Positions 27,465 through 56,233 of a stretch of DNA of 64,000 nucleotides are shown here, in pieces. Within the stretch, counting starts at the first letter, position 1. Every line of letters starts with the position of its first letter. A model generated the notes under the pieces. It was not told the DNA's origin. It did no database searches and saw only the letters and a list, made by a program, of their open reading frames with translations. The position numbers and the translations under genes are program-made. This stretch comes from Podarcis vaucheri (Eukaryota), in NCBI GenBank assembly GCA_965113315.1, contig OZ220368.1. One strand, given 5' to 3'.

Positions 27465-27620
27465 ACCGCAGACAGCTCAGTTGGTAGAACGTGAGACTCT
27501 TAATCTTAGGGTCTTGGGTTCGAATCCCACATTGGGCAAAAGATTCCTGCATTGCAGGGGGTTAGACTACATGACCCTCATGGTCCCTTCCAACTCTACA
27601 ATTCATATGAATTGTATGAA
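27465..27620 (+). mobile_element. SINE with a tRNA-Lys(CTT)-derived head and a CR1-derived tail
   Basis: agctcagttggtagaacgtgagactcttaatcttagggtcttgggttcgaatcccacattgggc resembles tRNA-Lys(CTT); the tail resembles the CR1 3' end at 32381-32450. Confidence 0.85.
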
Positions 27621-43131: not shown

Positions 43132-43161
43132 TCCCTTCAGTCTGAATATGTTCAGTACTAA
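43132..43161 (+). CDS. CDC14A: CDC14A last coding exon: SLQSEYVQY-stop
   Basis: tttctcgcctgcacag acceptor; matches the recalled mammalian C-terminus SLQSEYVHY; the 14 exons total 1651 nt = 1+550x3 with no internal stop. Confidence 0.95.
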   Translation, partial: SLQSEYVQY

Positions 43162-51939: not shown

Positions 51940-52621
51940 TTTGTTGTTGTTTAGTTGTTTAGTCGTGTCTGACTCTTCGTGACCCCATGGACCAGAGCAC
52001 TCCAGGCACTCCTGTCTTCCACTGCCTCCCGCAGCTTGGTCAAACTCATGCTGGTAGCTTCGAGAACATTGTCCAACCATCTCATCCTCTGTCATCCCCT
52101 TCTCCCTGTGCCCTCAATCTTTCCCAGCAACAGGGACTTTTCCAGGGAGTCTTCTCTTCTCATGAGGTGGCCAAAGTATTGGAGTCTTAGCTTCAGGATC
52201 TGTCCTTCCAGTGAGTGCTCAGGGCTGCTTTCCTTCAGAATGGATAGGTTTGATTTTCTTGCAGTCCACGGGACCCTCAAGAGTCTCCTCCAGCACCATA
52301 ATTCAAAAGCATCAATTCTTCGGCGATCAGCCTTCTTTATGGTCCAGCTCTCACTTCCAAACATCACTACTGGGGAAACCACAGCTTTAACTATATGGAG
52401 CTTTGATGGCAAGGTGATGTCTCTGCTTTTTAAGATGCTGTCTAGGTTTGCCATTGCTTTTCTCCCAAGAAGCAGGCGTCTTTTAATTTTGTGACTGCTG
52501 TTCCCATCTGCAGTGATCATGGAGCCCAAGAAGGTAGAATCTCTCACTGCCTCCATTTCTTCCCCTTCTATTTGCCAGGAGGTGATGGGACCAGTGACCA
52601 TGATCTTCCTTTTTTTGATGT
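51940..52621 (-). mobile_element. RTE-BovB LINE 3' fragment
   Basis: Minus-strand KIMVTGPITSWQIEGEEME...IKRRLLLGRKAM...IDAFELWCWRRLLRVPWTAR...LQYFGHLMRREDSLEK; (AAC)n tail; premature TGA at 52092-52094. Confidence 0.95.
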
Positions 52622-52779
52622 ACCGTTCTATTTATTTATTTAATTATTTCCTGGCAAAGCATGCATGCGCGGCTGCGCACGAGTCGGTGGGGGGTGCCTG
52701 CATTTCAGAAACTGCGGATTGGGTCGATTTGGCTTTGAAATGTGACCCGAGTCGCCTTTTTGTCCTCCGTACAGTCTCT

Positions 52780-53078
52780 GAATAGGTATGTATCTCCCCA
52801 GGTGCATTGAAACACACATCCAGAAACAGGTGCATTGAAACAGGCTCATCTCAGCTATCTGCCAATCTCCCATTCCCACCACCCTTCTGAGTAATACCCC
52901 TCCCCACCTTCTCACTATATAGAAGGGTCTGGCAAATTCTGTTTCAGTGTATCTGAAGAAGTGTGCGTGCACACGAAAGCTCATACCAAGAACTAACTTA
53001 GTTGGTCTTTAAGGTGCTACTGGAAGGATTTTTTTTATTTTGACTATGGCAGACCAACACGGCTACCTATCTGTAACT
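52780..53078 (+). mobile_element. Penelope-like element terminal (pLTR) fragment
   Basis: TATA-like ctatatag, hammerhead core, then ttagttggtctttaaggtgctac and accaacacggctacc, as recalled for reptile Penelope ends; left boundary approximate. Confidence 0.75.
52949..52986 (+). ncRNA. Minimal type I hammerhead ribozyme motif
   Basis: gtat-CTGAAGA-a-gtgtgc-gt-gcacac-GAAA-gc-TC-atac: core boxes intact, stem I gtat/atac, stem II gtgtg/cacac, palindromic AGCT in place of stem III. Confidence 0.85.
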
Positions 53079-53362
53079 GAAACAACATCCAGAAAGTATA
53101 AGGTGTCTGGAATTCGCATCAGCTACACGCCTAGCAGACAACTTCTTGGGCGTAGCAGCATTTATGTTGGGGGGGGGGCGCCCGCTTGTCCTCATCCTCC
53201 GTCTGGCTCCGTCTAGCAGATTCGGAACGAAACATCTCCACAACAATTGTTTTAAATGACTTTCTGTTGACCTCAAGCTCTCGGGGAAAAATCTGTCAAA
53301 ATCTTCAATGGTTTCAAAACTAGGGAATTAAATAAAAATAATAACATCGTTGACTGAGGCCC

Positions 53363-53502
53363 GAGGGCTTTCCGCAGTATAAATAGCCTGTGGGGAATTT
53401 CCAGTCGTTTCTAGACAGGCCTCGCAGGGGCGCACTCTCAGGAGAGAAGGCCAAGAACTATGAGAAGCTTCTAGAAGCTGAGCTACCTGTGATGCGATTG
53501 GT
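53363..53502. promoter_or_regulatory. Putative promoter/enhancer module: TATA box, two kB-like sites, heat-shock element, CCAAT box
   Basis: TATAAATA 53378-53385; GGGAATTTCC 53393-53402; aGAAgcTTCtaGAAg 53463-53477; ATTGG ~53497-53501; locally CpG-rich. Motif evidence only. Confidence 0.45.
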
Positions 53503-54260
53503 CGGTTTGCGGAAGCCACACCTATCGCTCTGCCGGTTGCGTCTCTCGAACGCGCCACAACACCATCCAAGTGACCTCCGTGAGCGCTTTCAAATATTCT
53601 GATCATTCCTACTTTTGGCTAAGTGTTTTATTTATTTACTTACTTGATTTAGGGGGAGCAGTTCCCGCCCCCCTGACCAAGCCCATGGGAAACTTCCACC
53701 TTGTTAGATTGGGGCATTTTGGTGCACCCACCTTGGACATTTTCAGGCAGGGAGATCACTTTGTGCGTGGTAATGACAGCTTTCAATATAAGGACAGCAC
53801 CTGCCCCCTCCCTCTCTTAGGAAAAGCCATGTACTGCATCCCTCCTATTTTGTACCTTTCTCAACTCCGTTGCCACGATGCTTTGCGTTCACAAGGACAG
53901 GTTTCCGGAGGTGGGGGAACCCTATGGCGAAAATACACTAGAGAATCGGCACAGTAATATGATGAAGACACTGTTGCCAAGGAGCAGAATGTTTTAAGCA
54001 AGAGCGTGGTTTTTTCCTCCCCATATTGCAACTAAAGATTTGATCTAAAATTAGATTTTTTTGATTTTTTTAAAAAAGGGGGAAAGGAGGAAATAAACCA
54101 ACCACATCCTCACGGGGGGGGGGGGCGTCGGAGGAAATGGAAGTAAATGTGAGCAAAGGAATTTCTTCTCCATCCTGGAAATCAGTGCTGCGGGAGAGGT
54201 CCAGGAAGAGACCAGAGGGGTGTGATTTGAGAACTCCAGTGGGTGGCGATGGAGGCAGGG

Positions 54261-55117: not shown

Positions 55118-56233
55118 ATGCCCAATATCTCCTTCTCCTCTTCTTCTTCCTCCTCCTCCTGGAGCTCTAGATCCTTGCAACAGCTGCTTTGCGAAGAAGA
55201 CTCCTTGGGGACGAGGATCTCTTTGTCTCTCTTCTACTTGCTGCTAGCCATCTACGGGACCATATCCAACATCATGGTCATCTACCTGGTCTTCACCTTC
55301 AGGAAGCTACGCACCACCAGCAACGCTTTCATTGTCAATGGTTGCGTTGCGGACCTGAGTGTCTGTGGCCTTTGGATGCCGCAAGAAGCGGTGCAGGGGC
55401 TGCTCCCTTCTGGGTCCCCGACAGTGCGGTCAGAAGGGTACCGGTTGCTCCGTGCTGGGCTGGTGGGCCTTGGGCTCATCGTCTCACTGCTCTCCCACCT
55501 GCTGGTGGCCCTCAACCGCTATGTCCTCATCACCAAGCCGCCCATCACGTACCAGGCTGTTTACCAGAGGAAGCACACGGCCTGGATGATCAGCTTGTCC
55601 TGGGGGCTGGCCCTCCTCCTCGCCTCCGTCCCCCCAGGACTGCAGATGTGGCAACCCAGCCGACAGGAGTCTCAAAATGGCACCAGTACCAAGAGCTCAA
55701 ACTACGTGGGCCTTCTGGTAGCCCTGGCTGTCCTCATCCAGACAGTCCTCCTGCTCCACTGCTACATGGGGATTGTCAGGAGGGTGAGGGGCAGCGTCAA
55801 GCGCGTCAGCGTCCTCAACTTCCACCTGCTCCAGCAGCTCCCCTTCCCAGCAGCCCCGGGGGCTCCCCGCCGGGCCCGGCGCCTCAGCAGCATCTCTGTC
55901 TTGCTTCTCTGCCTCGCGTTCCTCCTGGCCACACAGCCTTTGGTGTGGGTCAGCTTGCTGGGCTTTTTCGTCTGGCCCATGCCCCGGGGGCTGCAGATCG
56001 CCAGCTGGCTGCTCTTCTGCTCTCTCTCGGCCTTCAACCCGCTGCTCTATACGTGGAAGAACGAGGAGTTCCGCCGCTGTGCCCGCTTAGTGCTACCCGG
56101 AGGGGAAAACCCGGCGGTGGCGGTAGCTGCCGCAGCGGCCACTACCGCCCTCCCCACAGTGTCTCTTCCCTCGCAGGAGCCATCGCAGCTGGGGACCAAA
56201 GTGGAAAGTCTAGGCAGCTTAGTGCTTCACTGA
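55118..56233 (+). CDS. GPR88: G protein-coupled receptor 88, 371 aa, single coding exon
   Basis: acaATG start (the ORF-track start at 55076 is an upstream GTG); seven hydrophobic segments; GPR88 motifs LLCEE, FRKLRTTSNAFIVNGC, WMPQEAV, VALNRY, VKRVSVLNFHLL, LATQPLVWVSL, NPLLYTW; synteny with CDC14A as in mammals. Confidence 0.97.
   Translation: MPNISFSSSSSSSSWSSRSLQQLLCEEDSLGTRISLSLFYLLLAIYGTISNIMVIYLVFTFRKLRTTSNAFIVNGCVADLSVCGLWMPQEAVQGLLPSGSPTVRSEGYRLLRAGLVGLGLIVSLLSHLLVALNRYVLITKPPITYQAVYQRKHTAWMISLSWGLALLLASVPPGLQMWQPSRQESQNGTSTKSSNYVGLLVALAVLIQTVLLLHCYMGIVRRVRGSVKRVSVLNFHLLQQLPFPAAPGAPRRARRLSSISVLLLCLAFLLATQPLVWVSLLGFFVWPMPRGLQIASWLLFCSLSAFNPLLYTWKNEEFRRCARLVLPGGENPAVAVAAAAATTALPTVSLPSQEPSQLGTKVESLGSLVLH

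Follow-up and report, generated by a model that had tools for sequence, protein, structure and literature searches.

Does a solitary hammerhead ribozyme on the sense strand upstream of GPR88 act on the transcripts of its neighbors? An earlier note on this DNA had proposed that it could, by cutting CDC14A read-through RNA or RNA upstream of GPR88 in trans when its element family is expressed. From our analysis of the window (the whole stretch of DNA, 64,000 nucleotides), we assign a probability of about 0.88 to a different reading, in which the locus is a recent, 5′-truncated stub of a Neptune-type Penelope-like element (PLE) and the hammerhead is likely an inactive passenger. The genomic setting had been described correctly. 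The GPR88 ATG at 55118 lies 2,135 nt after the predicted cut site, in agreement with a placement about 2.1 kb upstream on the sense strand, and the identities of both neighboring genes hold, with a CDC14A exon matching 9rib (E 5e-40) and GPR88 matching 7ejx. The likely CDC14A stop (43159-43161) is 9.8 kb upstream of the hammerhead.

52949..52986, + strand: minimal type I hammerhead motif, assigned from sequence and its fit to the min-HHR description of PMC4209133; predicted cut at 52982/52983
55118..56233, + strand: GPR88 coding sequence (match to 7ejx, E 1e-114), a neighboring gene and not part of the element

Sequence inspection places CUGAAGA at 52953-52959, GAAA at 52975-52978, and C17 at 52982, and the CUGANGA and GAAA boxes and the UH cleavage site of the min-HHR are thereby present at the locus. 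Stem I is the 4-bp helix GUAU/AUAC (52949-52952/52983-52986), stem II pairs GUGUG with CACAC (52961-52965/52970-52974) around a CGUG loop, and AGCU (52978-52981) supplies the palindromic 15.2-16.2 pairs without a loop 3. A52960 is unpaired after A9, and G52961-C52974 constitutes the G10.1-C11.1 pair. The earlier note had listed the same parts at the same positions, and each was found. Its assignment to the Penelope-type minimal type I hammerheads with a palindromic stem III also stands, given the class features and the location in a pLTR, as does its description of the copy as solitary, with one unit in the window and no partner in cis.

A PLE end carrying a min-HHR is an already known kind (Cervera and de la Pena 2014, PMC4209133). 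The min-HHRs described there from metazoan PLE pLTRs, including reptilian ones, share with the window motif the type I core, the unpaired base between 9 and 10.1, the G10.1-C11.1 pair, the 4-bp stem I, and the palindromic 15.2-16.2 pairs without loop 3; they too occur mostly as solitary truncated copies, often in opposite-strand pairs. The differences lie in stem II, which here has 5 bp and a 4-nt loop versus 7-8 bp in the Schistosoma examples (PMC4209133) and is itself a 14-nt near-palindrome, and in the window element's family, which is very uniform in sequence. Taken alone, a single hammerhead site is weak evidence: the window contains one match to the core pattern where 0.12 would be expected, but shuffling the window also produced a match in 10 of 100 cases, and the 46-nt fold is no better than its shuffles (z −0.06). 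The site is not a chance occurrence, because it belongs to a repeat family. A scan of the kind the earlier note had suggested gave no support, as the Rfam hammerhead models returned nothing here at gathering score or at E<=10; this null result is not evidence against the motif, because minimal forms lack stem III. Within the family, stem II (52961-52974) is a 14-nt palindrome, with one change in the window copy. The family stem II loop also carries an ATG that opens a 9-codon upstream frame spanning 52967-52996, and the A-to-G change at 52967 in the window copy abolishes this ATG.

What kind of element carries the motif was addressed with a DNA search of the same genome, which gave 1,131 candidates, the best 40 of these being 97-100% identical. 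Comparison with 29 other loci delimited the stretch as follows.

52839..53079, + strand: 5′-truncated end of a probable Neptune-type PLE, pLTR plus tail, 241 bp, with 97-99% identity to most of the 29 other loci
53046..53079, + strand: first in-frame ATG of the element ORF and a roughly 35-bp tail; the ATG corresponds to the first Met of the 921-aa frame of L043

Longer family copies run on upstream into the end of a GIY-YIG coding region, and one locus, L043, is a full-length copy consisting of a pLTR, the 921-aa frame (RVT_1, E 3e-12; GIY-YIG, E 3e-5), and a second pLTR. The window copy is 96% identical to both of these pLTRs and comprises a pLTR and the first 34 nt of the ORF; the single ORF with reverse transcriptase (RT) and C-terminal GIY-YIG between pLTRs is found in the parent L043, of which the window holds the end only. 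L043 and L044, the two long-ORF copies, encode a C-x4-C-x2-C linker. According to Craig et al. 2021 (PMC8557442), a CX2-5CxxC linker occurs in Neptune and Nematis but is lacking in Penelope/Poseidon, which suggests a Neptune-type element, with the choice of Neptune over Nematis drawn from linker and host group rather than from an RT tree. The Neptune clade as described (PMC8557442) shares with the window element's family the single ORF with RT, linker, and C-terminal GIY-YIG, as well as 5′ truncation, inverted 5′ copies (30 of 69 insertion clusters here are inverted pairs), and an optional tail; the window copy differs in having a clear target duplication and in lying outside a microsatellite. 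Another lizard PLE, PAc (Poseidon_Ac) of Anolis carolinensis (Frangieh et al. 2024, PMC11167929), likewise has a hammerhead at the pLTR-ORF junction, two internal reverse-transcription starts that define a 30-40-bp tail, and an uncut RNA template. It differs from the window element's family in that Poseidon lacks the linker, and its first in-frame ATG is 26 nt before the cut (PMC11167929), compared with 63 nt after it here. L043 and L044 both have U17 (AGCUU) rather than C17.

The junctions and the age of the insertion can be read from the following features.

52816..52826, no strand: left copy of an 11-bp target-site duplication, identical to 53085-53095
52827..52842, no strand: 16-bp duplicate of host 52799-52814 at the 5′ junction, from sequence, with four bases common with the element
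53085..53095, no strand: right copy of the 11-bp target-site duplication, from sequence and the empty site of a relative

The 16-bp duplicate may represent repair filler. One contig of one related species joins 52601-52815 directly to 53085-53227, and at this orthologous empty site the hammerhead is absent, contrary to what a host-domesticated regulatory ribozyme would show. Both insertion junctions are present in the sequencing run closest to the window. The contig of a second individual with the same species label ends at 52815, with 43 letters not shown, and is suggestive of an empty site rather than proof of one. When each of its 241 positions is set against the majority letter in 29 close copies, the window copy shows 3 differences, one of them in the stem II loop; this is a low estimate of divergence, given that these loci were chosen for likeness. 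Judged from these comparisons of sequence, the insertion at the locus is recent.

The element landed between a LINE fragment (approximately 52002-52621) and an old repeat (53143-53620). The LINE fragment, which we take to be RTE/BovB, is high-copy, on the − strand, and directly upstream of the insertion. We had considered the CpG-rich right flank, with TATAAA near 53379, as a GPR88 promoter; this candidate was dropped, as 53143-53620 is an old CpG-rich dispersed repeat (48 matches listed, 47 of them non-self at 70-86% identity). A literature search at the level of record listings gave no GPR88 start site. In the CDC14A region, a tRNA-like sequence (27475-27538; 40 bits, D arm shortened) is likely a pseudogene or SINE head.

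Whether family RNAs are cut before they are copied should be visible in where the copies end. A 31-nt anchor located 3′ of the cut site has 13,676 matches, and we mapped the copy ends of the first 100 of these relative to L043. The sample covers 5.1 Mb of one contig and 69 clusters; thirteen loci chosen for having the core (L123-L135) were excluded from the count. The 5′ ends fall at 52945-52951 in 42 copies, at 52952-52977 in 28 (many of them fold-back junctions), and further upstream in 30, with none at 52978-52989, around the cut site. Among the 37 copy ends joined to non-element DNA, 16 lie at 52945-52951 and none at the cut. Genome-wide counts show the same pattern: extending the query by 8 bases across 52950-52942 reduces 13,420 matches to 4,803 (a 64% fall), whereas 8 places added across the cut site reduce 14,042 to 12,679 (9.7%), a fall that 1.4% substitution per site would explain. 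At the other end, 47 of the 100 copies stop at 53035-53048 and 50 at 53067-53085. These classes are separated by about 35 nt, a layout expected of a tail and a pair of internal priming sites like those of the anole element (PMC11167929). The U17 copies in this sample are nearly all short, with 5′ starts at 52945-52950.

52916..52923, + strand: TATA-like box TATATAGA, likely the element's promoter; its first T is 30 nt before A52946
52944..52951, + strand: initiator-like TCAGT and putative transcription start, from copy 5′ ends and genome-wide counts

A TATA box typically precedes the transcription start by about 30 nt. Copy 5′ ends pile up at about this distance from the TATA-like box, which is therefore likely the element's own promoter. 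The earlier note had remarked on this ctatatag; the motif is indeed meaningful, though likely in that role. The box is retained in the window copy, as in 26 of the 100 sampled copies. The start itself is one that we infer from DNA ends as opposed to cap-mapped RNA, and the TATA-less, internal promoter of Drosophila Penelope (PMC2377424) counts against it. Since 5′ ends cluster at the putative start and are missing from the cut site, most copies probably arose by run-off on an uncut mRNA leader. The lack of copies that start at the cut could instead mean that cut RNA is unusable as a template. For the window copy, which includes the cut site and begins upstream of the start, the template was likely an uncut read-through RNA. 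Our literature search, of limited depth, found no published account of this run-off pattern.

The short copies might alternatively belong to a distinct SINE- or retrozyme-like family, non-autonomous and with a fixed 5′ end of its own, rather than being run-offs of the parent mRNA; the window copy would still be an inert stub. We consider this improbable. A tandem array of five 101-104-bp hammerhead units (L045) and the description of pLTR-derived retrozymes (10.64898/2026.07.22.740005) speak for such a family, but the 5′ ends are spread over 52945-52951, the short copies match the long ones in sequence with both core variants represented, they lack a TATA box, and their 3′ ends fall into the same two classes as those of the parent.

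In the preferred reading, that of a 5′-truncated stub, the element would be transcribed from the TATA box at 52916 with a start near 52946-52949, and the mRNA would open with the hammerhead, in its first 40 nt. Reverse transcription would begin internally, near 53041 or 53079, and cross the uncut hammerhead; the usual run-off at the RNA 5′ end would give the commonest copies, of 95-135 bp. The window copy reaches 107 nt further upstream, and its source would be a tandem or full-length element transcribed as read-through RNA. Any cleavage would likely depend on a second copy and the element's own protein. More tentatively, and with doubt outweighing belief, we suggest that copy ends record the element's life cycle, in which tail priming and run-off at a capped 5′ end would yield the strong-stop-like copies of 95-135 bp that make up most of the family, transcription would start under TATA control 3-6 nt before the hammerhead, and the ribozyme would be a protein- and dose-dependent switch on its own mRNA and not a monomer cutter of tandem RNA. 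With such a start, cleavage would remove only the cap and a 35-nt leader. The role of PLE hammerheads is described as still an open question (PMC8557442). The window locus, one of thousands of recent stubs, is likely of no consequence in itself; the wider interest lies in the family pattern, in which copy ends mark the transcription start and the two priming sites and point to a lack of cut templates, giving exact coordinates for asking whether and when the ribozyme cuts.

Several points weigh against an inert stub: the core is intact, stem I is predicted to form in an RNA that starts at 52946, the copy keeps its TATA box and points towards GPR88, and family RNA occurs on both strands in a relative, making trans partners available. 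In another reading, the window copy acts as a new weak promoter, from whose TATA box and initiator sense RNA would start about 2.2 kb ahead of the GPR88 ATG, so that carriers would make an additional GPR88 transcript, upstream or ectopic. Both motifs survive in the sense direction, and the copy ends suggest that this promoter works in source elements. Nonetheless, we regard the proposal as very unlikely: the layout is common, with 4,803 copies extending upstream of the start, the insertion is recent, and a T run and the element ATG at 53046 stand in the way. One sample without locus-specific RNA, itself without GPR88 reads, argues weakly in the same direction. This sample, single-cell RNA of another species, comprised two runs covered to about 12% each (1,894 and 1,679 reads; 90-nt fragments). 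Family reads were found on both strands; the left flank and GPR88 had no reads and the right flank hardly any, and read ends did not pile up among the 90-nt fragments. Owing to the fragment length, the tissue, and the insertion status of that species, nothing follows from these reads for the window locus.

Would two family RNAs assemble into an active ribozyme? For the 45-nt motif, nearest-neighbor energies, which are computed without tertiary contacts, Mg2+, or protein help, were predicted at −12.7 kcal/mol for the active-type dimer and −15.6 kcal/mol for two monomers, while a stem-II-swapped dimer, palindrome-paired and without stem III, was predicted at −26.8 to −30.6 kcal/mol. The AGCU duplex contributes only −2.5 kcal/mol by prediction. 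Stem I has a pairing probability of 0.0 in 241-nt and 600-nt contexts, as in read-through RNA, and a predicted probability of about 0.75 if the RNA starts at 52946. Pairing of two RNAs through the stem II palindrome is predicted to be far stabler than pairing through AGCU; in this model the stem II-palindrome dimer would be an inactive trap, and the palindrome may drive fold-back junctions. Published tests of related ribozymes lean in the same direction. A min-HHR monomer was not cleaved and dimers were cleaved weakly (PMC4209133), the anole PLE ribozyme cleaved only with the PLE protein, its main template being uncut RNA and no RNA-seq ends being found at the cut (PMC11167929), and one of nine frog dimers was active, the other eight showing no cleavage (10.64898/2026.07.22.740005).

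Least credible of all is the trans cutter itself, in which a family RNA, once expressed, would pair in trans at AGCU and cleave read-through RNA from CDC14A or RNA made upstream of GPR88. In its favor, the core is intact, family RNA is found on both strands in a relative, and dimer cleavage is described for the class (PMC4209133; review PMC6765202). Against it, the active-type dimer is predicted to be less stable than the monomers or the stem-II-swapped dimer, the AGCU duplex is weak and stem I unformed in long contexts, the site is 9.8 kb past the CDC14A stop with several AATAAA signals between, the insertion is absent in a relative, and the family has no cut-site footprint. The earlier note's proposal is accordingly unsupported, on the evidence of more than 11,000 copies, a recent insertion absent in a relative, an unfavorable active dimer energy, and no sign of cut templates among family copies.

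The copy number, which the earlier note had suggested counting, amounts to 11,217 exact 30-nt cores genome-wide (9,620 with C17 and 1,597 with U17; reversed control, 0), or 0.38-0.44 copies per 64 kb. At this density, the chance of a sense copy within 2.2 kb is P = 0.0066-0.0076 per gene, and 131-153 genes would have one by chance (20,000 genes assumed). The hammerhead copy near GPR88 is thus likely there by chance, without controlling GPR88.

A relaxed hammerhead pattern gave 99 matches versus 17 for its control. Among 20 retrieved loci, 13 belong to other families in which the core is kept and stem II has another sequence, mostly still paired: across these 13 loci, 36 of the 52 inner pairs of stem II form, against 21.4 by shuffle (three of the loci are one sister family, and not all are independent), and stem I has at least 3 bp in 6 of 13. 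The hammerhead class is probably under selection in source elements, which says nothing about the window copy. In older hammerhead-like families of this genome (L138-L155), the core reads CUGAUGA or CUGACGA and stem II differs in sequence.

At L045:941-1404 (G000:C1:5631941-5632404, − strand), the array mentioned above runs head to tail with an intact hammerhead in each unit. It is a retrozyme-like array of the window element's family and would be a natural substrate for a test of dimer cleavage. It fits the non-LTR retrozymes (10.64898/2026.07.22.740005; PMC7229834), whose type I hammerhead units come from PLE pLTRs; the window copy differs from these as a single unit outside any tandem array.
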